Source of the DNA: Vicinamibacterales bacterium
GTDB taxonomy: Bacteria > Acidobacteriota > Vicinamibacteria > Vicinamibacterales > CAVVIG01
Direction: 5' to 3'
Assembly: GCA_965229885.1 (NCBI GenBank)
Contig: CBDDJX010000002.1
Location: 202,784 to 266,783 of the forward strand
Length of the DNA stretch: 64,000 nucleotides
The translations under genes and the position numbers were made by a program. The notes under the pieces are model-generated. The model saw only the letters and a program-made list of their open reading frames with translations, was not told where the DNA came from and did not search any database. Shown one piece after another: positions 1 through 64,000 of this stretch; position 1 is the stretch's first letter, and each line of letters opens with the position of its first letter.

Positions 1-14
1 CGCGCGAAGGCAAA

Positions 15-1604
15 TTGCTCGCGCTCGCCACTGGCACGATGCTGCCGGAGGGGCGTCCGCGACACCTGGCCGGCATCCTCGCCGCGTTCGTCGGCGCGCT
101 CGTCACGACCATCCTGGCGCTTGGCGGCGTGCGTCTCCTGCAAGTCCACTACGAGGGCGCGAAGGAGATCGCGCTCGGCGTGCCGACGTGGGCCGCCGAT
201 CTCGCGTTTCCGATCGCGTTCGGTCTCATCGCGCTTCGACTCGTCTGGAAGTGTTCACCGGCGATGAACGGTCGGGCGCTTGCTGCACTCGGCATCCTGG
301 CCGGCGCGTGGATTTCGACGCATCCGGAACTCCTGCTCGATCAGCCAGCCTGGCCCTGGATGGCCGTCCTCGTCGGCGCCGCGATTCTCGGCATGCCGAT
401 CTACGCGCTCGTCGGCGGCGCGGCGGTGATTCTGTTTCTCGTGCAGGGCGACAGCCCGGCCAACGCCATCATCGGCAGCTACGATCAGCTGACTTCGACC
501 GATCTGCCGGCCATCCCGCTGTTCACGCTGGCCGGGTTTCTCCTCGCCGAAGGCCACGCGTCCGATCGGCTTTTGCGTCTGTTTCGGGCCTTCTTCGGCT
601 GGGCCCCGGGCGGCACTGCCGTGGTCACGGCCATCCTGTGCGCGTTCTTCACGCTCCTGACCGGTGGATCCGGTGTCACGATCCTCGCGCTCGGCGGACT
701 GCTGATGCCGGCGCTGATTGCCGACGGCTATTCCGAGCGCTTCTCGCTCGGCCTGCTCACGGCCGCGGGCTCGCTCGGCCTGCTCTTCCCGCCGTCGCTC
801 CCGCTGATTCTGTACGGCATTGTCGCGGAGGTCCCGATTGGCGATCTCTTCGTCGGTGGTTTCCTCCCGGGATTGCTGATGCTCGGCGCCCTGGCGGCGC
901 TCGGCGTCCGCGAAGGACTGGTGGTCGGCAGCGCCCGTCGGCCATTCACCGTCCGAGAGGCCGTTGCCGCCTCATGGTCCGCGAAGTGGGAACTGATGCT
1001 GCCAGTCGTGATCATCGGGTCGCTCCTTGCCGGAGCGACGACGGTTCAGTCCGCGGCACTGGCAGCGCTGTTCACGCTCATCGTGCAACGGTTCATCCAG
1101 CGCGACCTCGCCGGGTTTGGCGACCTACAACGCGCCATGAGTCGCTCGATCGCGCTAGTGGGCGGCATCCTCATAATTCTGGCGGTCGCCGTTGGGTTCA
1201 CGACGTACCTCATCGACGCGCAGGTGCCGGCGCGCCTTGCGGAATGGACCGAGGCGAACGTGGAGTCGAAGTGGGTGTTCCTGCTCGGCCTGAACGCGTT
1301 TCTAATCATCGTTGGCGGCATGATGGACATCTTTTCGTCGATCATCGTCGTCGTGCCGCTCATCGTGCCGATTGCGAATCACTTCCAGGTCGACCCGATC
1401 CATCTGGGCATCATCTTCATCGCCAACTCCGAGCTGGGTTATCTCACCCCACCTATAGGCGTGAACCTGTTCGTGGCCTCGTATCGATTCAACAAGCCCA
1501 TCCTCCACATCGCGCGCGCGATGCTGCCCATGTACGTCATTCTGCTCATTTGCGTGCTGCTCGTTACGTATGTGCCATGGCTCACGCTTGGCATGCTCCG
1601 GTGA
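15..1604 (+). CDS. TRAP transporter fused small/large permease (DctQ-DctM); probably starts before the window
   Basis: Highly hydrophobic ORF. DctM-like motifs AIPLFTLAG, GSLGLLFPPSLPLILYG, DPIHLGIIFIANSELGYLTPPIGVNLFV. Confidence 0.85.
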   Translation: MLALATGTMLPEGRPRHLAGILAAFVGALVTTILALGGVRLLQVHYEGAKEIALGVPTWAADLAFPIAFGLIALRLVWKCSPAMNGRALAALGILAGAWISTHPELLLDQPAWPWMAVLVGAAILGMPIYALVGGAAVILFLVQGDSPANAIIGSYDQLTSTDLPAIPLFTLAGFLLAEGHASDRLLRLFRAFFGWAPGGTAVVTAILCAFFTLLTGGSGVTILALGGLLMPALIADGYSERFSLGLLTAAGSLGLLFPPSLPLILYGIVAEVPIGDLFVGGFLPGLLMLGALAALGVREGLVVGSARRPFTVREAVAASWSAKWELMLPVVIIGSLLAGATTVQSAALAALFTLIVQRFIQRDLAGFGDLQRAMSRSIALVGGILIILAVAVGFTTYLIDAQVPARLAEWTEANVESKWVFLLGLNAFLIIVGGMMDIFSSIIVVVPLIVPIANHFQVDPIHLGIIFIANSELGYLTPPIGVNLFVASYRFNKPILHIARAMLPMYVILLICVLLVTYVPWLTLGMLR

Positions 1605-1623
1605 GCAATCGGCAGGCCTCGAG

Positions 1624-2379
1624 CTAGCCGGAGTGGTCCGCCTGAACGCGGACCCCACAGAGGGTTCGCCAATTGGCGACGAGCGTATTCGCGATCTCCT
1701 GCACCCCGATGCCGTTCGTGACCTGGGCGAATATGAACGGGCCGCGGCCGCGCACGCGGCGCGAGTCGCGGGCCATCACGTCGAGGTCGGCGCCAATGAG
1801 CGGGGCCAGGTCCGTCTTGTTGATGACGAGCAGGTCGGACTGGGTGATCCCAGGCCCTCCCTTACGCGGGATATTGTCGCCGCCCGACACGTCGATGACA
1901 TAGATCGTGTAGTCGGCGAGCTCTCGGCTGAACTGCGCGGCGAGATTGTCGCCCCCGCTTTCGGCAAGCAGCAGGTCGGGATGGAACTTCACCATCAGCT
2001 GGCCGAGCGCGTCGAGATTCTGGCTGACATCGTCGCGCACGGCCGTATGGGGACAGCCGCCCGTTTCAACCGCCGTGATGCGGTCGGCCGGGAGCGCCTG
2101 ATGACGCACCAGGAATTCCCCGTCCTCTTTCGTGAAGATGTCATTGGTCACGACGGCCAGACCGTAGTCGTCGCGAAGCAGGCGACAGAGGGCCAGCAGC
2201 AGCGCGGTCTTGCCGCTGCCGACCGGGCCGCCGATGCCGATCGTAAACGCGCGCGAGCGGTAGTCGCGGTTGATTGGCGCGCGTCGAGCCTGGAACAGCC
2301 CCGGCCCATCAGGCTCGTCATGCCCGTCCGGCTCGCTCTGCTCGCCCGGATGTTTGTGGTTATGCGGCAGATAGTGCAT
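1624..2379 (-). CDS. ureG: Urease accessory GTPase UreG
   Basis: GPVGSGKT P-loop, [15 protein letters not shown] and INKTDLAP motifs. His-rich N-terminus; start taken at MHYLPHNH. Confidence 0.95.
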
Positions 2380-2432
2380 CAGCGTTGCTCCAGAATGTCG
2401 CTCACGACTGAAAGAGCCGCGTGTACAGGCGG

Positions 2433-3058
2433 TCATGGCCGGCCTCCAGAAGATCGAGCACGGGGGGCTGTCTGCGCGAGGTCGTCAATCGTCAGCGCGC
2501 CGCAGCGATCGGCGATCCGATCCAGCCACGGACTGCATGCGTCTTGCATCCGTTGTGTTTCGAAGCTGCCGGCAATGCCGAGCCGCACGGCCGCCGACAG
2601 CACGCCGCGCGCCGTCCCGTACAGCACGACCTTCTGCGCGGTCGCCAGGGGCAGGCCGATAGCCCGAACGTGGCCCCAGCGAGCGGCGCCACGTGCGCAC
2701 ACGTCGCATCCGCGCGCGTCTGCAGGGCGGCCAGCTGCGCAGACGGCCAGATCCGACCGGCAGTGCCGAGGAGCGTCCGGCCCTGGATCCGGCTGGCGCG
2801 ATTGGCCACGGTGTTGAGCAAAAAGGCGTCGGCGAGGGCGTAAAACGCTTCGAGCTGTTCCGGCGAACGATAGGCATCGTTCAGCAGCGGCAGCGACGCA
2901 TAGCCGGCCTGCTGGATGGACGCCTCGAGGAAGACGCGCAGGCGATCGAGACCGTCCACCTCGCCCTGCTGCCACGCGGCCTCGAGGCCCCAGGAGTGCG
3001 CAAACACACCCGTCGGGAATGCGGAATCGACGACCTGCCACGTGAGCCAGTCGGACAC
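2433..3058 (-). pseudogene. ureF: Urease accessory protein UreF, frameshifted
   Basis: N-terminus DSAFPTGVFAHSWGLEAA. The C-terminal part (VVLYGTARGVLSAAVRLG) continues in another frame after about 2670, and the end looks truncated. Confidence 0.85.
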
Positions 3059-3067
3059 TCGATCGCC

Positions 3068-3148
3068 TCAGAAGAGAAAGTACCGCTGTGCGAGCGGCAG
3101 CACATCGGCCGGTCGTGCGCGCAGTTCTTCGCCGTCGGCTGTGACGAT
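3068..3148 (-). pseudogene. ureC: C-terminal relic of urease alpha subunit UreC
   Basis: Reads IVTADGEELR / PADVLPLAQRYFLF-stop across one frameshift. This is the canonical UreC C-terminus, and it lies directly upstream of ureF. Confidence 0.8.
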
Positions 3149-3149
3149 G

Positions 3150-3551
3150 AGCGACGCCGCTTTCTCTACCATCGCGATCATCGCGTCATACTTGGCAAGC
3201 ATCAGTTTCACATCCGGGAGCAGCTTGGCCATGTCGGACTTAGGAGCCTTGAGCCCCTCGGTGATCTCGTCTGGTAATTTGTCTCTAGTGCGGCGTACAT
3301 GTCCGCACTGCGGGTGCTGATGTACACCTCGATCCCGTTCCAGCCCGAGTCATAGGCTTCGAAGGCCGCCTTGGTGCCGGCCGCGTCCTGCCTTTCGAGG
3401 ACGGCGATCGTCTTCACGAGGGTCGGACGGACGGCTTTGATGCTGGAGACCTCCAAACGTTCCGCTGCCTTGGCCGCGGGCGCCTGTGCCACAGAACCGC
3501 CCGGGGGAGTGTTGTGAGCAACCCGAGAGCGACGAGCACGGCTGGTTTCAT
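3150..3551 (-). pseudogene. Secreted hypothetical helical protein, frameshifted, 3' end fused to the ureC relic
   Basis: Signal-peptide-like MKPAVLVALGLLTTLP. Coding-like AFEAYDSGWNGIEVYISTRSADMYAALE, with frame changes near 3495 and 3280. Confidence 0.5.
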
Positions 3552-3560
3552 GGCGACATG

Positions 3561-4328
3561 CTACACCCGCGGAGGCCCGACGTTCACGCAGTCGTGCACG
3601 ATCGCGAGGAGGGCAACGCAGGCCGTGTCGGTCCGCAACGTGCGGGGGCCCATGCCGCCGGCCTGGAAGCCATGCGCTTTGAGCGACGCTGTTTCGAAAT
3701 CGTTCCAGCCGCCTTCAGGCCCGACAGCGAGCAATATTCGTTCTTCGATGCTCTCCCGCACGACCGCGGCCGACGGCTTCTTCTCGGCCGGATCGGCCAA
3801 GAGACGGCGCCCGCTCGGGAACAGGCCGCTCAGCTCATCCTCGATCAGTACCTTGAATTGCCTGTGGATCGAAACTCTTGGTCGCCGTGTGTCGCGGGCT
3901 TGCTGCAGCCCTTCGACGAGCAGCGGTCCGTAGCATTCCGGCGTCAGCACGTGCGTGTCAAAGTAGTTCCGCTCCACGCGCTCGGCATTGGTCAGGATGA
4001 TCTGCCCGACTCCCAACGCGGCGATCTGGGCCCACAGCCGCCGCATCACTTTTGGTCGTGGAAGGGCAAGGAGCAGATCGACCCGAGGCCGGGACGGAAC
4101 CATCGCGTCAAACTCGCAGCGCAATTCCACGGTACCGTCGGCGATAGACTGGACGGTTCCCACGCCGCACGGGCCATCAAGGATACCGACGCGGACGTGA
4201 TACCCGGGCGCGACCCTCAGCACGTTCAGTAGGTGATCGGCGCGTCGGCCCGAAAGGCTGACGCTGCTTCCCGGGCTTCCAGGGCCTCCAGCGCTCACTT
4301 CGACGGGCTCGAGAAGAATGAGATTCAT
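3561..4328 (-). CDS. rsmE: 16S rRNA m3U1498 methyltransferase RsmE
   Basis: HLLNVLRV, LALPRPK, AVGPEGGW and LRTDTA motifs. Confidence 0.9.
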   Translation of the reverse strand: MNLILLEPVEVSAGGPGSPGSSVSLSGRRADHLLNVLRVAPGYHVRVGILDGPCGVGTVQSIADGTVELRCEFDAMVPSRPRVDLLLALPRPKVMRRLWAQIAALGVGQIILTNAERVERNYFDTHVLTPECYGPLLVEGLQQARDTRRPRVSIHRQFKVLIEDELSGLFPSGRRLLADPAEKKPSAAVVRESIEERILLAVGPEGGWNDFETASLKAHGFQAGGMGPRTLRTDTACVALLAIVHDCVNVGPPRV

Positions 4329-4381
4329 GGGACCCGCCCATTGTCACTGATTAAGATTTGTTTCCTGCAATCCCCAACGCC

Positions 4382-4980
4382 ATGAGAATTTTCACAATTG
4401 GCGGATCCCGCGCGGCTATGATCACCGTCGTCCTGACGATTTTCGCGGTGGCTTCGGCCAGCGCCCAGCAGCCTGCTGATGTCCAGGTCAAGACGACGAA
4501 GATCAGTAAACAGTTCGCGCCCATGACCGAGAAGCTCGTCGCGGCGATTAAGCAGATCTCGGACGGTCGTATTCGCTTTGCGATCAACACCCACGTCCAC
4601 GTCGATCACACGGGCGGAAACGAGAACCTGGGCAAGCTGGGCGCGACGATTGTTGCACGCGAGAATCTGCGCACGCGTCTCATGAAGTCCAACGCCGGCG
4701 CAAACGGCGCTCCCGGTGTCCCCGCGCCTCCGATGGCCCTGCCGGTCGTGACTGACGACGCGCCGGTGACGGTCCACATGAACGGGGAAGACGTGCATCT
4801 CATCCCGTGCCGGCCGCGCACACCGACGGCGACACGATGGTTCATTTCCCCTCGGTTGACGTCATCATGACCGGCGACTTCTATCGCTCGACCGGGTACC
4901 CGAAAGTCACGGGCGCGACCGCGATGACGGCGGACCGGTTCGTCGGTCAGTTGTACGCGGAGCTCAAGGCGGGCCGATAA
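4382..4980 (+). pseudogene. MBL-fold metallo-hydrolase (cyclase-like), internally deleted and frameshifted
   Basis: THVHVDHTGGN metal motif. The HTDGD and TGD motifs fall in a shifted frame after about 4810, and the ORF is much shorter than typical for the family. Confidence 0.75.
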
Positions 4981-5959
4981 ACCCCGCTGCGGTCAGCAGG
5001 CCTTCAAAGTCGCGCGGGAGCGTCGCCTCGAGCCGCACCCGACGGTGCGTAGCGGGATGCGCAAAGGCGAGACGCCACGCGTGGAGCGCCTGGCGCGGAA
5101 ATGCCCGCAGCGCGGCCCTGAGCGTGGGATCGACCATCGTCGTCCAGCGCGGACCGCCATAGACGGCGTCGCCGACGGGCGGCCAGTTGCGGGCCGCCAG
5201 GTGGACGCGGATCTGATGCGTCCGGCCCGTCACGAGGCGGCAGCGCAGGAGCGAGAGGCCCGCGTGCGGCGCTGCCACGGAGGCGAGTCTTTCGAATCGC
5301 GTGAGACTCGGCGCCCCGACGCTTGACGACGCGATCATTCGCCGACGATCCATGGGGTCGTGGCCGAGCCGTAGGGCGATCTCGCCGCGGACCATCTTGA
5401 CGCGTCCATACACCACCACCAGGTAATCCTTTTCGGTGTGGCTCGACGCCATCGTTCGCTGCAGCGCGGCATGAACGGCCGCGGTCTTGGCCACCACGAG
5501 AATTCCCGATGTGCCCTTGTCGAGGCGGCCGACGAGCGACGGCCGCTGCCCTGGCGGCCACCCGCGCGCATGCCACAGGAGCGCGTTCAGCACCGTGCCG
5601 GCCACGTTCTTGTACGAAGGGTGCACGACCACGCCCGCGGGCTTGTCAAGCGCGAGCAGCTGGTCGTCTTCGTACAGAATATTGAGCGGCACATCTTCGG
5701 CGGCCATCGCGACGCGACGTGGGGCTGCAGGAAGCGTGACCGTCACGACATCGCCGACGACGGCGCGTGCGGCGGTGCGGTGGACGGGCGCGCCATTCAC
5801 CGTGACCTGCCCGTTTTCGATCCACGCCTGGACCTGCGTGCGAGTCGCCGCGTCGACGTCAGTGAGGTGCCGCCGGAGCACCAGATCGAGGCGAACGCCC
5901 GCGTCGCCCCGGTCGGCGGTCAGGATGCGGTCAAGGTGGGTGTTGGGAATTCGTCCCAT
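4964..5959 (-). CDS. rluD: RluA-family 23S rRNA pseudouridine synthase (RluD-like, with S4 domain)
   Basis: S4-like N-terminus; LDKPAG, GRLDKGTSG, TGRTHQIRVH and RQALHA motifs. Confidence 0.88.
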   Translation of the reverse strand: MGRIPNTHLDRILTADRGDAGVRLDLVLRRHLTDVDAATRTQVQAWIENGQVTVNGAPVHRTAARAVVGDVVTVTLPAAPRRVAMAAEDVPLNILYEDDQLLALDKPAGVVVHPSYKNVAGTVLNALLWHARGWPPGQRPSLVGRLDKGTSGILVVAKTAAVHAALQRTMASSHTEKDYLVVVYGRVKMVRGEIALRLGHDPMDRRRMIASSSVGAPSLTRFERLASVAAPHAGLSLLRCRLVTGRTHQIRVHLAARNWPPVGDAVYGGPRWTTMVDPTLRAALRAFPRQALHAWRLAFAHPATHRRVRLEATLPRDFEGLLTAAGFIGPP

Positions 5960-6005
5960 GGCAGCGACAGAGTACAGTAATTGCGTGAGTGCTCTTTCGG
6001 ATTCC

Positions 6006-7631
6006 ATGCCGCCCGACCTTCAGGATCCGGGCGACGTCACACCGCCTTCAGCGCTCGCCGAGCTCGAACGGGAAGTGTCGAGACGGCGCACATTCGCGAT
6101 CATTTCCCATCCCGATGCGGGCAAGACGACGCTGACGGAGAAGCTGCTGCTGTACGCCGGCGCCATTGAGCTGGCCGGCGCCGTCCGGGGGCGCAAGGAC
6201 CGCCGGCACGCGACGTCCGACTGGATGGAGCTCGAGCAGCAGCGCGGCATCTCGATCACCTCCGCCGCGCTCGAATTCGAGCTGCAGGGACGTCGGATGT
6301 CGCTGCTCGACACCCCCGGCCACAAGGATTTCAGCGAAGACACCTATCGCGCCCTCATTGCCGCTGACAGCGTCGTGATGGTCATTGACGCGGCGAATGG
6401 CGTCGAGGACCAGACACGGAAGCTGTTCGAAGTCTGCCGAAGGCACCGGCTACCCATTCTCACGTTCATCAACAAGTTCGACCGCCCGTCGCGCGATCCG
6501 CTGGAACTGATGGACGATCTCGAGCGCACGCTCGGGATCGCCGCTGCGCCGGTCAACTGGCCGATCGGCAGCGCCGAACGGTTCCGCGGGGTGTACGACA
6601 TCGAGCGCCAGACGCTGCTTCGATACGAGCGCGAGGCGCAGGGGCAGTATCGGGCGCCGGTCGACATGTCGTCTCTCGACGATCCGGAAGCGCGGGACAT
6701 GATCGGGGCGGACGAGTACGCGAATTTCCGCGAGTCGCTGGATGTCATCGCCGCCGCCGGCACCGGGTTCGACGTGGCGGCATATCTGGCGGGCCGGCAG
6801 ACGCCCGTCTTCTTCGGCAGCGCCCTGACGAACTTCGGCCTCGAGCCGTTCCTGCAGGCGCTCGTCGAGATCGCGCCGCCGCCGCAGCCGCGCCCGAGCG
6901 ATTCGGGGACGGTCAGCCCAACCGATGACCGCTTCAGCGGCTTCGTGTTCAAAATCCAGGCGAACATGGATCCGCGCCATCGCGATCGTGTCGCGTTCGT
7001 CCGCGTCTGCTCCGGCCGGTTCGCAAAAGACATGGTGGTGTCCAACAGCCGGGTGGGGAAGTCGCTCCGCGCGTCGCGCGCCTACCGGTTCTTCGGCCGC
7101 GATCGCGAGACGATCAGCGTGGCCTATCCGGGCGACATCATCGGTCTCGTCAACCCGGGACATTTCGCGATCGGCGACACGCTCCATGCCGGCGAACCGT
7201 TGCGGTTTCTCGATCTGCCGCGCTTTCCAGCGGAGCACTTCGGGCGTGTGCGTCTGAAGGACATCCGGTACAAGCAGTTTGACGATGGCCTCAAGCAGCT
7301 CGAAGAGGAAGGGCTGATGCAGGTGTTCTACGTCGCCGCGGGCCGCCGCGAGCCGATCGTCGGTGTCGTCGGTGCGCTGCAGTTCGCCGTGATTGTCAGC
7401 CGTCTTCGGACAGAGTACGGCGTGGTGGTTGAAATCGAGACCGCGGGGTACGCAGTTGCGCGATGGCTCGGAAGCCCTGCGGGGCCGACGCCTTCACTGG
7501 GAGCGCACAGCGCGGTGGCCATGGACCGGCAGGAACGGCGCGTGATCCTGTTCGGCTCCGAATGGGAGCTGCAGTACTTCGCGCGCCATCATCCTGACGT
7601 ACCGCTGCTGGCCGAGTCGCCGGTCGCCTGA
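6006..7631 (+). CDS. prfC: Peptide chain release factor 3
   Basis: RRTFAIISHPDAGKTTLTEK, DTPGHKDFSEDTYR and INKFDR motifs; start at MPPDLQ. Confidence 0.96.
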   Translation: MPPDLQDPGDVTPPSALAELEREVSRRRTFAIISHPDAGKTTLTEKLLLYAGAIELAGAVRGRKDRRHATSDWMELEQQRGISITSAALEFELQGRRMSLLDTPGHKDFSEDTYRALIAADSVVMVIDAANGVEDQTRKLFEVCRRHRLPILTFINKFDRPSRDPLELMDDLERTLGIAAAPVNWPIGSAERFRGVYDIERQTLLRYEREAQGQYRAPVDMSSLDDPEARDMIGADEYANFRESLDVIAAAGTGFDVAAYLAGRQTPVFFGSALTNFGLEPFLQALVEIAPPPQPRPSDSGTVSPTDDRFSGFVFKIQANMDPRHRDRVAFVRVCSGRFAKDMVVSNSRVGKSLRASRAYRFFGRDRETISVAYPGDIIGLVNPGHFAIGDTLHAGEPLRFLDLPRFPAEHFGRVRLKDIRYKQFDDGLKQLEEEGLMQVFYVAAGRREPIVGVVGALQFAVIVSRLRTEYGVVVEIETAGYAVARWLGSPAGPTPSLGAHSAVAMDRQERRVILFGSEWELQYFARHHPDVPLLAESPVA

Positions 7632-7796: not shown

Positions 7797-10147
7797 CTAA
7801 GTGTTCGCCTTCGCCGCCAGCACGCGTTCGTGCGCGACGAGGGCTAACAACACGATGATGGCCGCGAACGGCAACATCGACAGCAGATCGGCGTGGGCGC
7901 CGCGGAACAGCGGGTTGTTGGCCGCCGACCACCCGGCGATCCGATCGGTGAAGTCGGCCATGACACCCGCCATGAACGCGATCACGATCCCCGCGATCGC
8001 GCCGCCAGCGATATATCCCGATGCGAGCAGCACGCCGGGGCTCCGGTCGGCTTCCGCGGTCAGCTGCTCGCGCGTGAGCTGCGCGCCGCGATGCTTGCGA
8101 CGCACGTGGCGATCGCCAAGCCATCGAACCAGACCGCCGATGAAGATCGGACTCGACGCCGAGAGTGGCAGGTAGACGCCAACGGCAAAGGCGAGCGACG
8201 GGATGCCGGACATTTCCAGGATGAGGGCAATCATCACGCCGAGGAACACAAGGCCCCACGGCAGTTGACGGTTGAGAATGCCCTTGATGATGTAGGACAT
8301 CAGCGTGGCTTTCGGGGCGTCGAACTTCGCGACGTCACGGAGCCCGTCCGGCGTGCGCCGATGCACGCCGTTGATCCCCGGATCGACGAGGAACACGGGC
8401 ACGCCGCCCGTGTCAACGAGGTACTTGCCGGCCGGCCCGTCGTCGGCCGTTGGCTTGTGCCAGACGAGATACCGCTGGCCGTCGTGCAGCTCCGAATCGG
8501 TCAGATCCGCCGGGTTGGTACGGAGCGTTGCGGAAAAAATCTCGATGTCCCGCAGCACTGTTCCGTTCGTCCCCGCTACCGGCGCCTTGCTGACCCGCGG
8601 CACGTAGACCGTCGCCGCGCTGTTCAACGTCAACAGAATCGGACCGAGGAGCAGGGCAGAACTCAGCGCACCCACCACGATCGCGATCTGCTGGCTGCGC
8701 GGCGTCGCCCCGACCAGGAATCCGGTTTTCAGATCCTGCGACGTCGTGCCGCCGTTCGACGAGGCGATGCAGACGACGGCGCCGACCGAGAGCGCCGTCA
8801 CGTAATAGGCCGACCCCGTCCAGCCGACGAGGAGGAACGCCAGGCATGTGACGAGGAGCGTCGCGACGGTCATGCCCGAGATCGGGTTCGAGGACGAACC
8901 AATTTCGCCGGTGAGCCGGGACGAGACGGTCACGAACAGGAATCCGAGCACGACGATCAGCGTGGCGCCGAGGACGTTCATGTGAAGCGGCCGGGCCAGC
9001 ACGATGGCGACGCCGAGGCCGAGGCTGCCGAAGAGCACCACCTTCATCGACAAGTCCCGATCCGTGCGCAGCAGCGACGGTCGCGCACCGGCGCCGCCGC
9101 GGAAATCCTTCAACCCTCCCTGCAGGCCGCCCCAGATCGTCGGTAACGCCCGAAGCAGGCTGATGATTCCGCCGGCGGCCACCGCGCCGGCGCCGATGTA
9201 CAGCACGTAGGCATTGCGGATGTCATCGGGCGACATCGCCCCGATCGGGATCGTCCCCGGCGCAAGAGGGGCCGTGGAGCCCGATCCGAAGAACGTGATC
9301 GCCGGGATGAGGACCAGATACGCGAGCACGCCGCCCGCACACATCACCGACCCGATGTGCGGTCCAATGATGTAGCCGACGCCGAGGAGCTCGGGAGAAA
9401 TCTCGGCGGCGATCGACGCGCCGGCAAACGGGGGGGCGAAAATCTTCTCCGGGATGTCCTTCCAGCCCTTGAACGCCACGTTCAGGGCCTTGTAGGCCAG
9501 GCCGATGCCGAAGCCCGCAAAGTATCGTGGTCGCGCTCGTGCCGGCCGGGCCCTGCCTGGCGTGTTCGCGCTGAGCCGTTTCTGACGCCGCCAGCCGCGA
9601 TTCGCGCGACGCGCCGGCCTTCAGCACTTCCGCACACGCGGTGCCTTCCGGGTACTTCAGGATGCCGTGCTGCTGCACGATCAGCGCCCGCCGCAGCGGG
9701 ATCATCATGAGGATGCCGAGCAGCCCGCCCACCAGCAGGACGCGCGTCACCTCCAGATCGAAACCGAGAATCATGATCGCCGGCATCGTCACGCCCAGGC
9801 CAAAGGCGATCGATTCGCCGGCCGAGCCGGCAGTCTGCACGATGTTGTTCTCGAGGATCGTCGCGTCGCGCATCCCGAACTTCGACAGGAGCCGGAAGAT
9901 AGTGATGGAAATCACCGCCACCGGAATGGACGCGCTGACCGTCACACCGACCTTCAGCGCCAGGTACAGCGACGACGCGCCGAAGATCATGCCGAGGTAT
10001 GGTGCCGACGACAAGCGGCAGCGCCGAGAGCTCGGGGATCTGTGTGTGAGCGGGAATGTAGGGTTCGAACACCGGTGCGTCGGGAAGGGCATCCGGCCTC
10101 GCCGCCGGCGTCGCGATGATCGTCTCCTGCGCGAGGGTCTCTGTCAT
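7797..10147 (-). pseudogene. OPT-family oligopeptide transporter, two frameshifts
   Basis: [49 protein letters not shown] and QDLKTGFLVGATP spread over three frames (breaks near 10010 and 9530). Confidence 0.88.
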
Positions 10148-11326: not shown

Positions 11327-11364
11327 TGGACTGTGCGGTCCGCAGATACTACATTACGTGGCGT

Positions 11365-50168: not shown

Positions 50169-50178
50169 CGCCGGCCTG

Positions 50179-53937: not shown

Positions 53938-54740
53938 TACGCTTCGCCGGCGCGCTCGCGACCCTGGTTCTGTGGTCGCCGCCGGCGTCGGCTCAGTCGC
54001 CGACCCAGTCAGGCCAGCCTCCAGTCCAGACATGCCAGCTGGGGACTCTGCGGCTCGAGCGCGGCGAGTCGATTCCGACTTCCGGATGACATGCATCACC
54101 TTCGGCACGCCGAACGCCGCGCGCAGCAACGCTGTCCTCCTGATTCACGGCCTACGAGGGAATAGGGACAGTCAGAGCACGTGGGCCGGACCGGGGAAAG
54201 CCTTCGACACCAGCCAGTACTTCGTGATTCAGCCCGACACGCTTGCATCCGTTTCACCCGACCCGAATGCGACGACCTCACCGACCCGCGCGGGTCTCGG
54301 CATGCGATTTCCTCGCTTCAGCAATCGCGACGTGGTCCAGGCGGAACACCGGATGCTCACCGAGTGCCTCCGCCTGTCGCACCTTGTCGCAGTGTCCGGT
54401 ACGTCGATGGGCGGCATCGAGTCGATGCAGTGGGCGGTCAGCTATCCAGACTTCATGGACGCCGTCATCCGATCGTGCCCCAGGCGTTCGCGGCAAGACA
54501 GTCCGTGTTCATCTGGGAGGCCGCTCGACGCGCGATCATGTCGATCCGAAATGGATGGGTGGGACGTATCCCGCGAACGACCCGCCGCGCGCCGGCGTGG
54601 CGGCGGGACTCACCGTGCAGACGGCGTTCGGCTCCTCGTCGGCCGCTTTCGACAAGAACTTCCAGACGAGGGAGGCCGTCCTCGCGTTCTATCAGTCGCC
54701 GGCGGACGCGCGCGACTGGGCATTCTGGATGATCGCTGAC
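53938..54740 (+). pseudogene. Secreted alpha/beta hydrolase (homoserine acetyltransferase-like fold), IS-interrupted, frameshifted and truncated
   Basis: NAVLLIHG, GPGKAFDT.QYFVI, FPRFSNRDVV and SGTSMGG nucleophile elbow; the 5' end lies at about 52605-52653, on the other side of the IS. Confidence 0.8.
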
Positions 54741-56529: not shown

Positions 56530-58305
56530 ATGGCCAAGCGGCGATTCGCCGTCCTCTTCACTGTGTTCACTGTACTCGGCATCGCGGTCTTCCTCTCGAT
56601 GGCCGGGCTTGCGCTGCTCTACCTCGCGGTCGGCCGCGAGCCCAACGTTCCCGCTGATGCGACGCTCGTCCTGCGGGTGGGCGGCGATCTCTCGGAAATG
56701 GCGCCCGCCGATGTCGTCGGATATCTCCGCGGCGCCAGGGCGCCCACCGTGCGATCGATCGTGGAAAACCTGCACAAGGCGAAGGTGGATTCGCGGATCC
56801 GCGCCGTGCTGGTCAAGCCGACCGGCTTCTCCTCGCCGTACTGGGGCAAGGTGCAGGAGGTTCGCGACGCGATGCTCGATTTCAAGGAATCGGGCAAGCC
56901 GCTCTACGCGTATCTCGAGTACGGCGGCGATCGCGAGTACTACCTCGCCACGGCGGCGGACCAGGTGTACCTGATGCCATCGACGTCGCTCGATCTCATT
57001 GGCGTCGCCACATACCAGCTGTTCCTGAAGGGCACGCTCGACAAGATCGGCGCGATTCCCGATCTGCATCGCATCGGCGAGTACAAGACGGCGGTGAACA
57101 CGTTCACCGAGTCCGGCTATACCGCCGCGCACAGGGAAATGGACGAGGCGCTCAATCGCGATCTCTTCAATCAGATCGTGGGCGGCATTGCGGCGGGCCG
57201 GAAGAAGGACGAGGCGGACATCCGGCAGCTTATCGATCAGGGGCCGTTCCTTCCTGAGGATGCGCTCCGTGCCGGGCTCGTCGACGATGTGCAGTACGAA
57301 GATCAGGTGAATACGAAGCTGCAGGGACAGGGTGAACCGCGGCAGATCGACGGCGACGACTATGCCCGCGTCAGTGGTACGTCGCTCGGGCTGAACAGCG
57401 GTCCACGCCTGGCGATCATCTACGCCGTCGGCACCATCACCAGCGGCAAGAGCGGGTACGACCCGGTCAACGGCGCGGTGGTCGGCTCCGAGACGCTCAT
57501 CGAGTACATCCGCCAGGCGCGGCGCGACGAGAGGGTGCGCGGCATCGTGCTGAGGATTGACAGCCCCGGCGGATCCGCCGCGGCGTCCGACGCGGTGTGG
57601 CGCGAGCTGATGCTTGCCAGAAACGAGCGCGAGGACCGGCCGATTGTCGCGTCCATGTCGGATCTCGCCGCCTCGGGCGGCTATTACATCGCGCTGCCGG
57701 CGCAGCTCATCGTCGCCCAGCCATCGACCCTGACCGGATCGATTGGCATCTTCGGCGGGAAGATCGTCACCGGCGGCGTCTACGAAAAGCTTGGCGCCCG
57801 CATCGAGTCGACGAGCATCGGCAAACACGCCGAGATCGAGTCACCTGTCCGTCGGTACACTCCTGACGAAGTGAAGAAGCTGAATGATCAGCTTCAGGCC
57901 TTCTACGATCAATTCGTCGAGAAAGTGGCAGCCTCACGGCGCAGCACGCCCGAGGAGATCGACGCCATGGCGCAGGGCCGGGTGTGGACCGGCCGGCAAG
58001 CGAAGGATCGGGGCCTGGTCGACGCGCTCGGTGGGCTCGATCGGGCGATCGAGCTCACAAAGGAGCGCGCGAATATTCCGGCCAGCAGCGGTGTCGAGCT
58101 GGTGGTCTATCCACCAAAGAGGAGCTTTTTCGAGATCCTGAGCGATCAGCTCAACGGGACGAACGAGTCGCTCGCCGTGAGCCGGTGGTTGTCGGTGAGC
58201 TTGTCCAAAGGCGAGCTCGAGGTGCTCCGCACGATGCGCGGCCCGCTCACGCTCTTTCGCCGCGGCGAGCCGCTTGCGCTGATGCCGTTGACCTTCTTAC
58301 GCTGA
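56530..58305 (+). CDS. sppA: Signal peptide peptidase SppA (67K type)
   Basis: Two S49 domains; IDSPGGS, SMSDLAASGGYY, TGSIGIF and AQGRVWTG motifs. Confidence 0.95.
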   Translation: MAKRRFAVLFTVFTVLGIAVFLSMAGLALLYLAVGREPNVPADATLVLRVGGDLSEMAPADVVGYLRGARAPTVRSIVENLHKAKVDSRIRAVLVKPTGFSSPYWGKVQEVRDAMLDFKESGKPLYAYLEYGGDREYYLATAADQVYLMPSTSLDLIGVATYQLFLKGTLDKIGAIPDLHRIGEYKTAVNTFTESGYTAAHREMDEALNRDLFNQIVGGIAAGRKKDEADIRQLIDQGPFLPEDALRAGLVDDVQYEDQVNTKLQGQGEPRQIDGDDYARVSGTSLGLNSGPRLAIIYAVGTITSGKSGYDPVNGAVVGSETLIEYIRQARRDERVRGIVLRIDSPGGSAAASDAVWRELMLARNEREDRPIVASMSDLAASGGYYIALPAQLIVAQPSTLTGSIGIFGGKIVTGGVYEKLGARIESTSIGKHAEIESPVRRYTPDEVKKLNDQLQAFYDQFVEKVAASRRSTPEEIDAMAQGRVWTGRQAKDRGLVDALGGLDRAIELTKERANIPASSGVELVVYPPKRSFFEILSDQLNGTNESLAVSRWLSVSLSKGELEVLRTMRGPLTLFRRGEPLALMPLTFLR

Positions 58306-58314: not shown

Positions 58315-60234
58315 TCATAGCAGCGCGCGCTGGACCGCTTCGCGGTTGATTTCGATCTTCATCTTCTGCTTGACCTTGACCATGTAGGCGCCGAAGAAGC
58401 GGTTGCGCTTGTCGGCGATCTGCTCCCCGCGGAAGCGCTCGACGTTGGCCGCCCACTCGGTCGGCGTCACGTCCTTTTTCTCGAGGACCTTAAAGACGAC
58501 CGTCCCGGTGTCGGTCGCGGTTGGATCGCTGACGGCGCCGACCGGCAGCTTGAACGCCGCGTCTATCGCCTCAGGCGCAACGCCCAGACCCGGGATCGGC
58601 GCATCGCGCGTGATCAGCTCGGTGGTCGTCGCGTCGACGCCGGCGGTCTTCGCCGCCTTTTCGAAGTCGGCCGCGCCCTTCAGCGTCGCGGCGAAAGCCG
58701 TCGCCTTCTGACGGCTCAGGTCGCGCGCCTTCTGCTTGATCACCTCGTCCCGCACGCGATCCTTCACCTCGTCAAGCGTCGGCATCGATGGCGGCTGGAG
58801 GGCCATGAGTGCCTCAAACGCGAATCCGCGGGCGGACTGCAGCGGTCCGCTCACGTCGCCGACCTGCATCTCGAACGCGCGGGCCACCGCTTCGGGCGAG
58901 GAGCCGATGCCCGGAATCGATTCGTCCCGTGCGAAGAACCCGGACTCCTGCGGCGTCAGGCCGTGAGCGCTGCCCGCCTTGTCGAGGTCGGAAGGCTTGG
59001 ACACGTCCTTGGCGATGGTCTCGGCCAGATCCGCCGCCTGCGCGCGGGCTGTTTCGTACGCCAGCCGATCGAGGATCTGCTGCCGCACTTCGGGGAGCGT
59101 GCTCACCTTCGCCGGCTTCTTGTCCACGAGCCTGATGAGGTGGTACCCGAACTGCGTCTTGACGAGATCGCTCGTCTGTCCCGGCTCCATCGTGAAGGCG
59201 ACCTGATCGAACTCGGGCACCATTTTGCCCCTGCCGAAGTAATCGAGGTCGCCGCCGTTCTTGGCGGTGCCTTCGTCTTCTGAATATTTCACGGCCAGTT
59301 CGGCGAAGTCGGCGCCGCCCTTCGCCTGCTTGAGGATGCCTTCGGCCTTCAGTTTCACGGCGGCGTCGTCCTTGCCTCCAGTCTTCAACAGAATATGGCT
59401 CGCGCGCAGCTGCTCCGGCGACGTGTACTGGGCGAGGTCTTCGTTGTAGGCGCGCGCGATGCTGGCTTCGGGCACCGTGGTTTTCGCCCGGATGGCATTG
59501 GCGTCGACGAGCAGATAGCGGACCTTCCGCTTTTCCGGAATCTTGAAGTCCGCCTGGTGCGCGGTGAAGTAGGCCGCGACTTCGGCGTCGCTTGCGGTCG
59601 CCCCGGACTGGAACGTCTCGGCGACGAACGTCACGACGGCGAGCTTCACCTTGTCGTTGCCGAGGCGGTATGCCTGCTCGAGCTCCTTGTCGGTCGTCGA
59701 CAGCCAGCCGGTCAACACGACGCGAAGCTTGTCGAGCACGAGTTCTTCGCGGATCGACCTCTCGAACTTGGCCGGTGTCAGGGGCGGACGCTGGGAGCGC
59801 AGCAGCTGCTGGTACCGCCGCTCGCCGATGAACGCACCGTTCTCCTGGAACGACGGCACCGAGAAGATGCGCTGCCGCACTTCCTCGTCGCCGACTGTAA
59901 TCCCGAGGCGATCAGCCTCGGCGAGCGCCGCCTGCTGATCGACCAGCTGCTGCAGAATCTGCTGATCGATGCCGAGCTGCTTCAGGAGCTGTTCGCTGAT
60001 CGCGCCGCTGTACGCGTTGCGATACGCCTGGAGCTGGGCATCGTAGCTGCGTCGAAAATCACCGGCGGTAATCTCGCGACCCTCGACCGTGGCCACCGTG
60101 TCGCCCAACGCGACGCCCGCCGTGTTCCCCTGCAGGAAGTCAGGAATGTAGAAAATGACGAACGCCAGCACGACGAGGCCGAGGCTCCATTTGAGCCACC
60201 CCATATGCCGCCGCATCTGGTCGAGCATGGTCAT
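58315..60234 (-). CDS. SurA N-terminal / parvulin PPIase (PpiD-like)
   Basis: N-terminal anchor, SurA_N-like region; RASHILLK, FAELA.KYSED, GGDLDYF, MVPEF and TQFGYHLI motifs. Confidence 0.9.
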   Translation of the reverse strand: MTMLDQMRRHMGWLKWSLGLVVLAFVIFYIPDFLQGNTAGVALGDTVATVEGREITAGDFRRSYDAQLQAYRNAYSGAISEQLLKQLGIDQQILQQLVDQQAALAEADRLGITVGDEEVRQRIFSVPSFQENGAFIGERRYQQLLRSQRPPLTPAKFERSIREELVLDKLRVVLTGWLSTTDKELEQAYRLGNDKVKLAVVTFVAETFQSGATASDAEVAAYFTAHQADFKIPEKRKVRYLLVDANAIRAKTTVPEASIARAYNEDLAQYTSPEQLRASHILLKTGGKDDAAVKLKAEGILKQAKGGADFAELAVKYSEDEGTAKNGGDLDYFGRGKMVPEFDQVAFTMEPGQTSDLVKTQFGYHLIRLVDKKPAKVSTLPEVRQQILDRLAYETARAQAADLAETIAKDVSKPSDLDKAGSAHGLTPQESGFFARDESIPGIGSSPEAVARAFEMQVGDVSGPLQSARGFAFEALMALQPPSMPTLDEVKDRVRDEVIKQKARDLSRQKATAFAATLKGAADFEKAAKTAGVDATTTELITRDAPIPGLGVAPEAIDAAFKLPVGAVSDPTATDTGTVVFKVLEKKDVTPTEWAANVERFRGEQIADKRNRFFGAYMVKVKQKMKIEINREAVQRALL

Positions 60235-61612: not shown

Positions 61613-62638
61613 TTGAGCCTTCGTTCGATGTTGTCGCTGTTTTCGATTGACCTGGCGATCGATCTGGGCACGGCCAATACCTGCGTCTACGCGCGCGGCA
61701 AAGGGATCGTCGTCAACGAGCCGTCGATCGTCGCCATCAACAAGGTGAGCGGCCGCGTCGAGGCGGTCGGCAGAGATGCCAAGGAGATGCTTGGCCGTAC
61801 GCCGGGCAACATCGTCGCCATCAAGCCGATGAAGGACGGCGTCATTGCCGACTTCGAGGTCACCGAGAAGATGCTGGCCTACTTCCTCAAGAGGGCGCAC
61901 AATCGCAACGTGTGGGTCCGGCCGCGCATTGTCATCGGGGTGCCCTCGGAGATCACGCAGGTCGAGAAACGCGCCGTCAAGGACAGCGCGTATCGCGCCA
62001 AGGCCAGCGAAGTGTATCTGGTTGAAGAGGCGATGGCGGCGGCGATCGGCGCCGGCATGCCGATCACCGAGGCGTCGGGCAACATGATCGTGGACATCGG
62101 CGGCGGCACGACCGACATCGCGGTCATCTCGCTTGCGGGCATCGTCTACAGCAAGGCGGTCCGCGTCGCCGGCAACGAGATGGACGAGGCGATCATCCAG
62201 TACGTCAAGAAGACGTACAACCTGCTCGTCGGCGAGCGCACCGCGGAGCAGATCAAGATCGAAATTGGTTCGGCGTTTCCGCTCGAAGAGCGGATGACGA
62301 TGGAGATCAAGGGACGGCACTTGATCGAAGGCGTTCCGAAGACCATTACGGTCAGCGACGAGGAAATCCGCGAGGCGTTGGCCGAAACCGTCAACGTGAT
62401 CGTCGACGCCGTGCGCCTCGCACTCGAGCGGACGCCGCCCGAGCTGTCGGCCGACATCGTCGACCGCGGGATCGTGCTGACCGGCGGCGGGTCGATGCTC
62501 AGAAACCTCAATAAGCGGCTCCGCGAAGAGACGGGGCTGCCGATTGCCATGGCCGAAGATCCGCTATCATCGGTCGTGCTGGGCGCCGGAAAAATGCTCT
62601 CGGATTTCAATCTGCTCCGGAAGATCTCCATCGATTGA
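61613..62638 (+). CDS. mreB: Rod shape-determining protein MreB
   Basis: IDLGTANT, RPRIVIGVPS, DIGGGTT and LTGGG motifs. Confidence 0.97.
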   Translation: MSLRSMLSLFSIDLAIDLGTANTCVYARGKGIVVNEPSIVAINKVSGRVEAVGRDAKEMLGRTPGNIVAIKPMKDGVIADFEVTEKMLAYFLKRAHNRNVWVRPRIVIGVPSEITQVEKRAVKDSAYRAKASEVYLVEEAMAAAIGAGMPITEASGNMIVDIGGGTTDIAVISLAGIVYSKAVRVAGNEMDEAIIQYVKKTYNLLVGERTAEQIKIEIGSAFPLEERMTMEIKGRHLIEGVPKTITVSDEEIREALAETVNVIVDAVRLALERTPPELSADIVDRGIVLTGGGSMLRNLNKRLREETGLPIAMAEDPLSSVVLGAGKMLSDFNLLRKISID

Positions 62639-62740
62639 TGACGTTGCTCTTCACCACGGTGGACACGGACGCGGAGTTCAAGACCTGCCTGCAAGCAGGA
62701 TTGTTCCTCGGTGTCCTCCGGGGTCGGTAGTTCCGGGGAC

Positions 62741-63589
62741 ATGGCGCTTCTCCATATCCGTCACCGAGTCGGTTATCTGTTCCTCGGCGTCATGCTGGGT
62801 CACATTCTGCTGATCTCCGCTCAGGTGAATTCGCGCTCCGACGTCCCGATCATCCAGGCCGTGGTCTTCGGCGCGTTCGCCGAAGTGGAGCGCGCCATCT
62901 CCGCCGGCTTCTCGTCCGCGCGCCGCGTCTGGAGCAGCTACGCGGGCCTGCGCCACGTCAAGAGCCAGAACGAAGCGCTCACCCGTCAGTTGGACGCGGC
63001 CCAGGTCGCGCTGCAGCAGCAGCACGCGCTCGCCGATCGCACGCGAAGTCTCGAGCGGCTGCTCGATTTTCGCGCCCGATCGAACCTGAACACCATCGCC
63101 GCGGAGATTATCGCCGCCGGCGCCGCACCCGATTTCCGGACGTTCACGATTGACAAGGGGACGCGTGATGGAGTGAGCGCCGATATGTCCGTGATCGCGC
63201 CGGCTGGCGTCGTGGGGCGTGTCGTCATGCCGGGCGCGCGCGCGGCGAAGGTGCAGCTGCTTGTCGATCGCAACGCCGCGGCCGGCGCGCTCGTCAAACG
63301 ATCCCGCGCGCAGGGGGTGGTGGCCGGCGGCGGCGCCGATCGACTCCGCATGGACTACGTGTCGGAAGCGGCCGACGTCATCGTCGGAGACCTCGTCGTG
63401 ACCTCGGGCATCGACGGGATTTATCCGAAGGGATACGTCATCGGCCAGGTCGAATCCGTCGAAAGAAGCCGGGGCGCATACACGAAGATCGCCGTCAAGC
63501 CTGCCGTCGATTTCACCAGCTTGGAAGAAGTGCTGGTCGTCCTGACGCCCACCCCCACCCGCGAAATGGCCGAGGGGAGCGTCGAGTGA
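62741..63589 (+). CDS. mreC: Rod shape-determining protein MreC
   Basis: TM plus coiled coil; TIDKG..DGV, GVVGRV and TSG.DGIYPKG motifs; follows mreB. Confidence 0.93.
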   Translation: MALLHIRHRVGYLFLGVMLGHILLISAQVNSRSDVPIIQAVVFGAFAEVERAISAGFSSARRVWSSYAGLRHVKSQNEALTRQLDAAQVALQQQHALADRTRSLERLLDFRARSNLNTIAAEIIAAGAAPDFRTFTIDKGTRDGVSADMSVIAPAGVVGRVVMPGARAAKVQLLVDRNAAAGALVKRSRAQGVVAGGGADRLRMDYVSEAADVIVGDLVVTSGIDGIYPKGYVIGQVESVERSRGAYTKIAVKPAVDFTSLEEVLVVLTPTPTREMAEGSVE

Positions 63590-64000
63590 AGGCCGCCGGA
63601 ATCATCCTGGCCGTTGTCGCGGCGCTTGCGCTCCAGACGACGCTGGCGCGATACGTCCGGGGCACGGTGGCCGTGAATCTGGTGCTCGTGGTCGTGGTGT
63701 ACGTCGCCCTGATGTCGGGGTCCGTGACGGGCCTGCTGGCCGGGACGTTCGCGGGGCTGCTGCAGGACGCCCTGACGACCGGCGTCATCGGGATTGGCGG
63801 GCTGGCCAAGACGCTGGTTGGGTTTCTGACCGGAATCATCGGCACGCAGTTCATCGTGACGCAGCCGCTGCCTAGATTTTGCGTCTTTTTCGGGGTGACC
63901 CTGCTCCATGAGCTCGTCTTCATCGGCCTGTACACGCTGCTGGATCTACGCCATTTTGGGGCGCCATACGCCGCGGTGGTCGGGCAGGCGGCCGGCAACG
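63586..64000 (+). CDS. mreD: Rod shape-determining protein MreD (runs off the window)
   Basis: GTGA overlap with the mreC stop; hydrophobic, NL.LVVVVY, AGLLQDAL and G...LAK.LVG motifs. Confidence 0.88.
   Translation, partial: MKAAGIILAVVAALALQTTLARYVRGTVAVNLVLVVVVYVALMSGSVTGLLAGTFAGLLQDALTTGVIGIGGLAKTLVGFLTGIIGTQFIVTQPLPRFCVFFGVTLLHELVFIGLYTLLDLRHFGAPYAAVVGQAAGN

Follow-up and report, generated by a model that had tools for sequence, protein, structure and literature searches.

The locus described here raises the question of why so many of its genes are broken while the genes between them are whole. The stretch of DNA analysed (to be referred to as the window) is 64,000 nucleotides in length and is part of contig CBDDJX010000002.1 of a bacterium of the Vicinamibacterales (Acidobacteriota), an order typically found in soil. 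It has a G+C content of 65% and is chromosomal, with prfC, glnD-glnB, clpS-clpA, hemD, sppA, ppiD and mreBCD as markers, followed by mrdA, rodA and rng outside the window. The lesions in its genes are in the DNA, are derived, and are clustered in non-core genes. We consider it likely that they represent genuine gene decay, in which many dispensable genes have been inactivated or eroded and the interspersed housekeeping genes have been held intact by purifying selection.

Distribution of the lesions over the window

Eighteen of the 52 genes that do not belong to insertion sequences (ISs) are broken, and at least 41 distinct lesions were counted in them. Of the window, 57% is taken up by intact genes, 25% by pseudogenes and 6% by IS remnants. 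No lesion is found in the 34 intact genes (36.3 kb in total, with 16 kb in 15 genes of at least 1 kb); all of the lesions are located in the 15.9 kb of the 18 pseudogenes. The absence of lesions from 36 kb of intact genes has a probability of 4e-13 under a uniform rate, a value that is free of any split into core and accessory genes.

Sixteen genes were taken as the core set: rsmE, rluD, prfC, yciH, rnd, amt, glnD, glnB, clpA, clpS, hemD, sppA, ppiD and mreBCD. One of these 16 genes, rnd, is broken, compared to 17 of the 36 accessory genes (Fisher p = 0.004, with labels assigned after the data had been seen). If the lesions fell at a uniform rate over the 52.2 kb of gene space, the core genes (18.6 kb) should carry 14.6 of them, and at most one is seen (P = 7e-6). 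Purifying selection predicts this pattern, with some dispensable genes dead and no essential gene dead. An earlier interpretation of the same DNA, made by a model from the letters alone (the sequence-only reading), had proposed that the accessory genes are broken and the housekeeping genes whole, and the counts bear this out.

The seven long genes that it named as whole (clpA, glnD, sppA, the SurA-like gene, which is ppiD, prfC, amt and mreB) indeed show full-length matches to hidden Markov models (HMMs) or single-frame alignments. The prfC gene (6006–7631, plus strand) matches positions 4–524 of 529 of NCBIfam PRK00741 with 702 bits. The amt gene (26060–27430, plus) matches TIGR00836 over 1–406 of 406, with 89% identity over residues 20–502 of the open frame in a related contig (L091). 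For glnD (28610–31156, plus), residues 2–848 align in a single frame at 90% identity with relatives from Joint Genome Institute (JGI) metagenomes, and clpA (32089–34431, minus) matches TIGR02639 over 2–732 of 734 and is 89% identical to its counterpart in another such contig (L094) over 780 residues. Full-length HMM matches were also found for sppA (56530–58305, plus; 591 residues in the public record) and ppiD (58315–60234, minus; 639 residues in the record). The mreB gene (61628–62638, plus) matches PRK13927 over 2–334 of 339, and the exact protein is on record. The alignments of glnD, clpA, amt and glnB with the relatives run from end to end, at 88–97% identity. The last 44 nt of glnD (31113–31156) are also the first 44 nt of glnB.

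Many accessory genes are also found among the intact ones, for example ureG, DLH, gck and hprA, the genes of a SagB-like cluster, and those for a TRAP transporter, an M23 peptidase and a GGDEF protein.

To locate the breaks, each open frame rich in G+C at third codon positions (GC3) in a suspicious region was translated, and the pieces were scanned separately against Pfam as well as in the form of X-joined fragments of open reading frames (ORFs). GC3 frame plots were rejected as the sole frameshift caller, as they are too noisy. Lesions were mapped with orthologues where these could be obtained, which was the case for the OPT transporter, the ATP-binding cassette (ABC) permease, the transglutaminase, ftr, sga, the MetX-like hydrolase and the dehydrogenase dependent on pyrroloquinoline quinone (PQQ). 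The break calls for ureF, the metallo-beta-lactamase-fold (MBL) hydrolase, DinB, TetR, DUF2911 and the porin are based on HMM coordinates only. An Rfam scan of the window found tRNA-Leu only.

Comparison of the lesions between assemblies

The same locus is present, in reverse orientation, in contig ctg257844l (1,494,058 bp) of the European Nucleotide Archive (ENA) metagenome assembly ERZ21829562, as identified by exact-protein look-ups. A 3.23-Mb contig also contains a fragment encoded in the window. The window and ctg257844l show 36 differences over 61.5 kb, consisting of about 30 mostly transitional single-nucleotide polymorphisms (SNPs), four differences in the length of G/C homopolymers and one complex site in an IS copy. 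As there are about 30 SNPs between them, ctg257844l is a separate consensus and not an identical record. One SNP is located inside glnD, and the gene calls for rluD and ureG differ in length due to the choice of start codon.

Every lesion of the window outside long homopolymers is also found in ctg257844l. Moreover, Logan k-mer contigs from runs ERR14231557 and ERR14231558 match positions 1–6149, 34627–37139 and 37119–45910 of the window with zero differences (17.4 kb). These stretches include the lesions of ureF, the MBL hydrolase, the ABC permease, the transglutaminase, ftr and sga, together with the junctions of the truncated genes. At the SNPs within these intervals, the Logan contigs have the base of the window rather than that of the ENA record. 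The window and the record thus stand for two populations, or two consensus sequences, with slight differences.

Error in a long-read metagenome assembly, by wrong consensus calls or chimeric joins, could also give broken frames, and the name and size of the ENA contig do point to a long-read assembler. The window has six homopolymers of at least 7 nt, and four of them are discordant between the window and ctg257844l (9430–9436, 12088–12094, 16776–16784, which is a C9 run, and 25148–25156). The discordances are of the forms G7/G8, C7/C6 and, in two cases, C9/C8, and as a result homopolymer calls in these data are unreliable. One of them breaks rnd in one assembly, and another gives the ENA record an extra G in the OPT gene. 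The run at 25148 shifts the predicted start of the adjoining ORF, giving 436 residues as compared to 384. Discordant G/C runs of 6–9 nt, with rnd broken by one of them, are a point of resemblance to the frameshift artefacts of Oxford Nanopore or low-coverage HiFi reads, and out-of-frame segments are found in database homologues from other assemblies as well.

On the other hand, 40 of the 41 lesions are outside long homopolymers, are exactly reproduced by another assembler, and avoid the core genes. An independent k-mer assembler arrives at 17.4 kb without a single difference, lesions and junctions included, and two consensus sequences separated by about 30 SNPs have all the other lesions in common. 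The lesions comprise 7-bp and 4-bp tandem duplications, a GAG to TAG change, a TAA, insertions of one base away from homopolymers, the loss of 9, 57 and about 156 bp, and an IS630 remnant in place of two genes. The nonsense substitutions, the duplications of 4 and 7 bp and the deletions of 9–156 bp are not known as modes of error. The 36 kb of lesion-free genes (P = 4e-13) and the undepleted GATC sites speak against random and motif-specific error alike. We regard an artefact as very unlikely, with about 40 of the 41 lesions being genuine.

The sequence-only reading had argued that random sequencing error is not the source of the lesions and that many of them are not homopolymer indels. Both statements hold: the Logan contigs and the second assembly reproduce the lesions, the core genes are spared, only rnd is broken in a long homopolymer, and the 7-bp duplication and the internal deletions that it listed are present. 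As to chimeric junctions, which it gave as a possible refutation, the Logan contigs exactly reproduce the junctions of the truncated genes in the stretches that they cover. Its claim of in-frame TAGs as lesions stands for the permease (GAG to TAG), but only three such codons were found and two of these are the same codon in both copies of an IS. Its listing of rnd as broken applies to the window, where the gene is frameshifted, and not to the ENA record.

The rnd gene (RNase D; 11366–12526, plus) is interrupted at the C7 run at 12088–12094. The ENA record has C6 here and an intact protein of 386 residues, with the DNA_pol_A_exo1 and HRDC domains. The frameshift in the window may be a real polymorphism or a consensus error.

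The same 8-mer, ACGATACT, is located at two separate frameshift sites, at 41557–41564 in sga and at 9521–9528 in the OPT gene. A sequencing error specific to a motif was rejected as its source: GATC is frequent (520 sites), ACGATCT is still found unmodified at 17 sites, and the match of ACGATACT is attributed to chance.

Programmed interruption, by frameshifting, by read-through or recoding of stops, or by phase variation, would leave the affected genes functional. Programmed frameshifting is known in IS3-type transposases; in the window, an in-frame TAG is common to both copies of one IS, and the C-run of rnd could be a phase-variable tract. However, most of the affected genes have several unrelated lesions, including large deletions and truncations, and the frameshift sites have no common slippery-site pattern. 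TAG terminates 7 of the 26 intact genes that were checked, one of them with inexact coordinates, and is thus an ordinary stop here. Programmed interruption is, in our view, extremely improbable.

Structure of the broken genes and their intact orthologues

Among species-level genomes, the nearest are those of Luteitalea and other Vicinamibacteria, with ClpA sequences 68–75% identical to that of the window. Synteny with them is limited to clpS-clpA and is of little use for mapping lesions. Closer relatives are metagenome sequences. GlnD shows 82–91% identity in JGI contigs, and relatives of the transglutaminase and the OPT transporter reach 92–94% identity, some of them labelled Vicinamibacterales. 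The nearest matches are Vicinamibacterales contigs in metagenomes of the ENA and JGI, JGI 3300064085 among them.

Intact syntenic orthologues of the broken genes are found in these relatives at 85–93% protein identity. Full-length orthologues exist for the OPT transporter (780 residues, 93%), the transglutaminase (92–94%), the MetX-like hydrolase and the PQQ dehydrogenase (560 residues). As judged by alignment with these close relatives, the lesions of the window are derived; the core genes have been kept in place and their neighbours eroded. Five JGI contigs (L091–L095) have the order amt-OMP-glnD-glnB-rbp-ypfJ-clpA-clpS around glnD, with the outer-membrane protein (OMP) gene, rbp and ypfJ intact. 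Two further contigs, L103 (466 kb) and L102 (a scaffold of 18 kb), have the order hprA-sga-gck-5-formyltetrahydrofolate cyclo-ligase-ftr-orf161-transglutaminase-ABC ATPase-ABC permease in common; of the two, L103 alone shows ftr and a further ORF, and an additional peptidase gene is present in L102. Both contain intact sga (402/403 residues) and transglutaminase genes, and ftr (316 residues) and the permease (561 residues) are intact in L103. The apparent splits in L102, that of the permease included, are due to N gaps of the scaffold.

The first part of this order is a cluster of serine-cycle or one-carbon (C1) type (39334–43557 in the window, 3336–8884 in L102, 3915–9080 in L103). Of its genes, hprA, gck and that for the ligase are intact in the window, while sga and ftr have been inactivated.

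The sga gene (serine-glyoxylate or class-V aminotransferase; 41427–42583, plus) has three lesions, placed by aligning its DNA to the intact copies in L102 and L103. These are an added A at 41562, a 4-bp tandem duplication at 42017, which falls just past the codon for the pyridoxal-phosphate lysine, and a 57-bp deletion at 42508. One Logan contig (L003) shows all three, and a second (L004, starting at 41631) shows those at 42017 and 42508, both with 100% identity.

The transglutaminase-like gene (37235–38858, minus) is broken by one tandem duplication of 7 bp, GACGTGC, at 37987–38000. Removal of 7 bp restores a transglutaminase of 538 residues, with more than 3,600 homologues, the best of which are 92–94% identical over 95–100% of the query. 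Its relatives (512–552 residues) do not have the extra 7 bp. The L003 contig spans this lesion and those of ftr with 100% identity.

In comparison, ftr (formylmethanofuran-tetrahydromethanopterin formyltransferase; 38911–39337, minus) is heavily eroded, with a frameshift, two internal deletions and both ends gone. Relative to the intact protein of 316 residues in L103, residues 30–65 and 80–248 are left, in two frames and with gaps of 10 and 20 residues, amounting to about 200 recognisable codons. Residues 1–29 and 249–316 are gone, and the downstream orf161 is deleted as well.

The ABC_tran_2 permease gene (34776–36462, minus) carries a 1-nt insertion near 35937 and the GAG to TAG change at 35631–35633. 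Compared to the intact orthologue of 561 residues in L103, these correspond to a Glu codon turned into a stop and to CTG-CTG turned into CTGTTTG. A Logan contig (L090) is 100% identical over the permease, with the same three fragments.

The frame of the OPT oligopeptide transporter gene (7797–10129, minus) is shifted by +1 near 9998 and again near 9525, and 9 bp have been lost in frame near 9700. Residues 2–45, 46–226 and 228–780 of its orthologue P0121 (780 residues, 93% identity) align by tblastn in three different frames.

The gene for the PQQ-dependent glucose/sorbosone dehydrogenase (49268–50195, plus) has at least four frameshifts, deletions of about 52 and 23 residues, and TGA stops at 49794 and 50166, as mapped by tblastn with P0364 (560 residues). 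The stitched sequence matches GSDH (PF07995) above the cut-off. The MetX-like alpha/beta hydrolase gene (53949–54725, plus) has frameshifts near 54078, 54468 and 54540, and its 117 C-terminal residues are gone in front of tRNA-Leu. By tblastn, residues 3–40, 41–170, 171–194 and 195–263 of P0246 (380 residues) are found in alternating frames; intact orthologues have 338–380 residues. Out-of-frame stretches rich in Arg, Ser and Thr are present in database homologues of both proteins (P0361, P0365 and P0367 for the PQQ dehydrogenase, P0241 for the MetX-like hydrolase), so that frameshifted copies, real or erroneous, are common in public assemblies.

The DUF5777 gene (51087–51923, minus) has an in-frame TAA at 51522–51524 and a frameshift near 51203. 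HMM positions 4–85 and 112–210 are matched in one frame with the stop between them, and the Luteitalea homologue aligns in two frames.

The BBP2 porin gene (27510–28616, plus) has at least four frameshifts. Its pieces are in three frames and, when stitched, match the HMM with 125 bits, over positions 3–215 and a second stretch. At this site the relatives have an intact OMP of about 280 residues between amt and glnD. The leader or signal peptide of the porin (27445–27660) is homologous to that different OMP (3693–4628 in L091, 4124–5113 in L095), and the mature part is of the BBP2 type, which suggests that the body of the gene was replaced behind a conserved 5′ end.

The ureF gene (2436–3067, minus) is broken by a single frameshift near 2660, outside a homopolymer. 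The UreF HMM is matched over 5–104 of 151 in one frame and over 5–149 of 151 after stitching of the frames, with an increase from 34.7 to 74.8 bits. The pseudogene is inside a Logan contig (L089), with 100% identity. The MBL hydrolase gene (4355–4977, plus), which is covered by the same contig at 100% identity, is frameshifted near 4807 and cut short on its 3′ side, against the end of rluD; the Lactamase_B HMM is matched over 34–132 alone and over 34–150 of 196 when stitched (27 and 47 bits, respectively). Around broken ureF and intact ureG (1624–3067 for the pair), neither ureABC nor ureDE is present up to about 10 kb away in the window and its flanks (contigs L088 and L089). The two genes have the appearance of leftovers from a urease operon that was lost or moved elsewhere.

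The remaining broken genes are short remnants or truncated copies. A VapC toxin remnant (10901–11032, minus) matches the C-terminal positions 100–129 of 132 of the NCBIfam model (E = 4e-5). The DinB-family remnant (14249–14431, minus) retains the C-terminal 60 residues (HMM 106–157 of 165), annotated as a 60-aa gene in the record, and no N-terminal half is recognisable in any frame. The TetR-family pseudogene (14658–15175, plus) lacks the N-terminal half of the helix-turn-helix region, with TetR_N matched over 23–47 of 47 only, and has a frameshift near 14750. TetR_C_33 emerges on stitching, and both matches are below the Pfam cut-offs. The DUF2911 remnant (25181–25621, plus) matches positions 75–144 of 145 only, and its N-terminal half is not recognisable. 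A further stretch (3068–3520, minus), with an open frame of 103 residues running into Arg-rich out-of-frame sequence, has no family match in Pfam or NCBIfam and is represented by ORFs of 54 and 94 residues in the public record. It is a putative gene remnant, going by the appearance of its reading frames. A damaged RsmH-like gene in the sequence-only reading was not confirmed: the fragment of 106 residues at 11036–11353 (minus), so named by eye only, has no match in Pfam or NCBIfam, and the gene of the Methyltrans_RNA family in Pfam, rsmE (3561–4328), is intact.

The ages of the lesions can be compared. In sga, the transglutaminase and the permease, the ratio of changes at codon positions 1+2 to those at position 3 on the window branch is 0.46–0.83, compared to 0.55–0.74 in the intact neighbours. 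There is no excess of changes at positions 1+2, and thus the inactivation of these three genes is recent relative to the divergence of about 10% from L102. A relative-rate test as proof of long-term relaxed selection was rejected, as it gives no such excess and cannot prove decay in young pseudogenes; with a single outgroup, the window branch is about 1.2–2.2 times the L102 branch in six genes, and the ratio of positions 1+2 to 3 is not raised. The ftr remnant is 47–78% identical to its orthologue. The intact genes on its two sides show 81–92% protein identity, and because of this lower identity the ftr remnant is older. The transglutaminase and ureF genes have one lesion each, and those for ftr and the PQQ dehydrogenase have five to seven, so the process has been running for some time. 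All lesions outside homopolymers are older than the split of about 0.05% between the two assemblies. The decay is probably still going on.

Insertion sequences and the extent of the decay

Six segments of the window, 6.4% of its length, are derived from ISs, and all of their transposases are broken or partial. They are clustered at 18.3–23 kb, 31.7 kb and 52.7–53.9 kb. In the first cluster, an ISAZ013-type remnant (18372–18959, minus) matches positions 1–67 of 308 of the DDE_Tnp_ISAZ013 HMM, an IS630-type remnant (19392–19628, plus) matches 104–146 of 146 of DDE_3, and a further remnant (21116–21541, plus) matches 41–158 of 435 of DDE_Tnp_1_4. A weak tblastn match to a cytochrome c haem-binding motif (CxxCH) is found between these segments (19655–19708, minus).

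An IS-like element of 1.28 kb is present in two copies (A, 21700–22981, minus; B, 52652–53932, plus) that are inverted, 99.1% identical and bounded by imperfect terminal inverted repeats. It has no family in Pfam or NCBIfam, and its rve/DDE-like character is by eye only. The in-frame TAG (22109–22111 in A, 53521–53523 in B) is shared by the two copies, and each has a private lesion as well, a TGA at 22484–22486 in A and a 1-nt deletion at 53030 in B. As the TAG is common to both copies, the element was probably already defective when it was duplicated, or was mobilised in trans. Copy B in the ENA record (1397–1423 in L001, compared to 52985–53050 in the window) is without 41 nt that lie between two direct repeats of 16 nt, and 2 nt are added close by, a net change of −39 that is in frame. 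This is either a repeat-mediated deletion or an assembly collapse.

The remaining segment (31650–31960, minus) is the C-terminal remnant of an IS630-type transposase, identified by eye from the motif FAKLK...ECRNYFRHAGY and without an HMM match. Between glnB and clpA, the relatives have 1.3 kb with intact rbp (RRM) and ypfJ genes (L093 and L094), whereas the window has 0.45 kb with this remnant. About 3 kb to the left of the window there is an apparently intact IS3 (orfA/orfB); a Logan contig ends precisely at its border, as would be expected of a repeated element. A look-up of one IS-encoded protein found the same locus only and no further identical copies. A role of ISs in past rearrangement is supported by these observations. 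The sequence-only reading had described pseudogenisation with IS activity; the participation of ISs is seen in the replacement of rbp and ypfJ, but five of the six IS segments are dead, and current activity is not supported.

The damage would be of the ordinary spontaneous kind, no longer purged by selection. Replication slippage could account for the 4- and 7-bp tandem duplications and the single-base insertions. Deletions of 9 to about 156 bp would add to these, with the 57-bp loss in sga and the 41-nt loss in the other assembly both lying between short direct repeats. Nonsense substitutions would contribute further damage, and IS-associated deletion or replacement could remove genes. The cause may be relaxed selection on these functions, following a change of niche or a smaller effective population size.

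Several points weigh against gene decay as the reading of this locus. The core and accessory labels came after the data, and the discordant homopolymers mean that consensus errors are present in the data. If runs ERR14231557 and ERR14231558 are the same long reads as those behind the assembly, a systematic error could be shared, although this concerns single-base insertions and indels only. Frameshifted genes in metagenome assemblies are not unique to this genome, as the database homologues described above also indicate; the glycerate kinase gene of L103 (6187–7402) is split into a call of 243 residues and an antisense call, and the same gene is intact in the window. Finally, the sample consists of 64 kb and about 18 kb of flanks, and the decay may be regional. 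The flanks (about 10 kb on the left and 8.6 kb on the right) and positions 55.6–64 kb of the window contain about 25 called genes of normal lengths and domains, none of them split.

The last point bears on a narrower explanation, by which a stretch of about 50 kb (about 2.4–55 kb) visited by ISs and prone to rearrangement has decayed in an otherwise ordinary genome with no shift of niche. The absence of split genes from the flanks and from 55.6–64 kb and the clustering of the IS remnants are in favour of it. On the other hand, the broken genes do not form an island of foreign origin: they belong to the ancestral gene set, are syntenic, have intact orthologues at 85–93% identity, and are interleaved with core genes. 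Moreover, 18 pseudogenes among 52 genes over 50 kb is far above the level of free-living bacteria, in which pseudogenes make up a few percent of the genes. A purely regional decay is a possibility that we hold tentatively, as the lesser one; in that case the finding would be ordinary.

Gene decay may well reach beyond this region. Its strongest form, early-stage reductive evolution over the whole genome (at least 3.2 Mb) with about one-third of the non-essential genes freshly inactivated, seems rather unlikely to us. Decay of this kind is known in recently niche-restricted bacteria, such as Mycobacterium leprae, Sodalis glossinidius, Shigella and Burkholderia mallei. The window resembles them in its many frameshift, nonsense and deletion pseudogenes, its low intact coding density (57%, locally), its IS-associated deletions, its spared housekeeping genes and the mixed ages of its pseudogenes side by side. 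It differs in that the sample is 64 kb with clean flanks, the relatives are from environmental metagenomes, no clear expansion of ISs is seen, and the IS copies are mostly dead. The host-restricted lifestyle suggested in the sequence-only reading is not supported by these data. In comparison with the pseudogenes of free-living bacteria, the kinds of lesions and the classes of genes (transporters, regulators, toxin-antitoxin genes, ISs) are the same, but pseudogenes are about ten times as dense here (18 of 52 genes and one-quarter of the sequence), and genes widely conserved in the order are affected, for example the transglutaminase-ABC operon with its more than 3,600 homologues.

If the decay were genome-wide, it would imply either that the lineage has recently moved into a sheltered or partner-dependent niche or that it has passed through a severe population bottleneck. 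A literature search found no report of a pseudogene-rich member of the Vicinamibacteria and no paper on the accession numbers, and as far as this search shows the case would be the first described in the Acidobacteriota. It would be a natural instance of ongoing decay in a phylum that is abundant in soil and usually seen as free-living with large intact genomes, and it would make it possible to ask which functions conserved at the level of the order go first. In the window these would be the OPT transporter, the transglutaminase-ABC operon, part of the serine-cycle/C1 cluster, a urease accessory gene and the PQQ dehydrogenase. For long-read metagenomes in general, pseudogenes can be separated from consensus errors without the reads, by means of a second assembly, k-mer assemblies and close relatives.

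One intact cluster (43872–49108, plus) is located between the broken genes of the right half. It contains ORFs of 368 and 393 residues, an ORF similar to prenyltransferases and squalene cyclases (46627–47253), and a SagB-family dehydrogenase of 555 residues (TIGR03605). The cluster may function in peptide modification, of the type found for ribosomally synthesized and post-translationally modified peptides or thiazole/oxazole-modified microcins.

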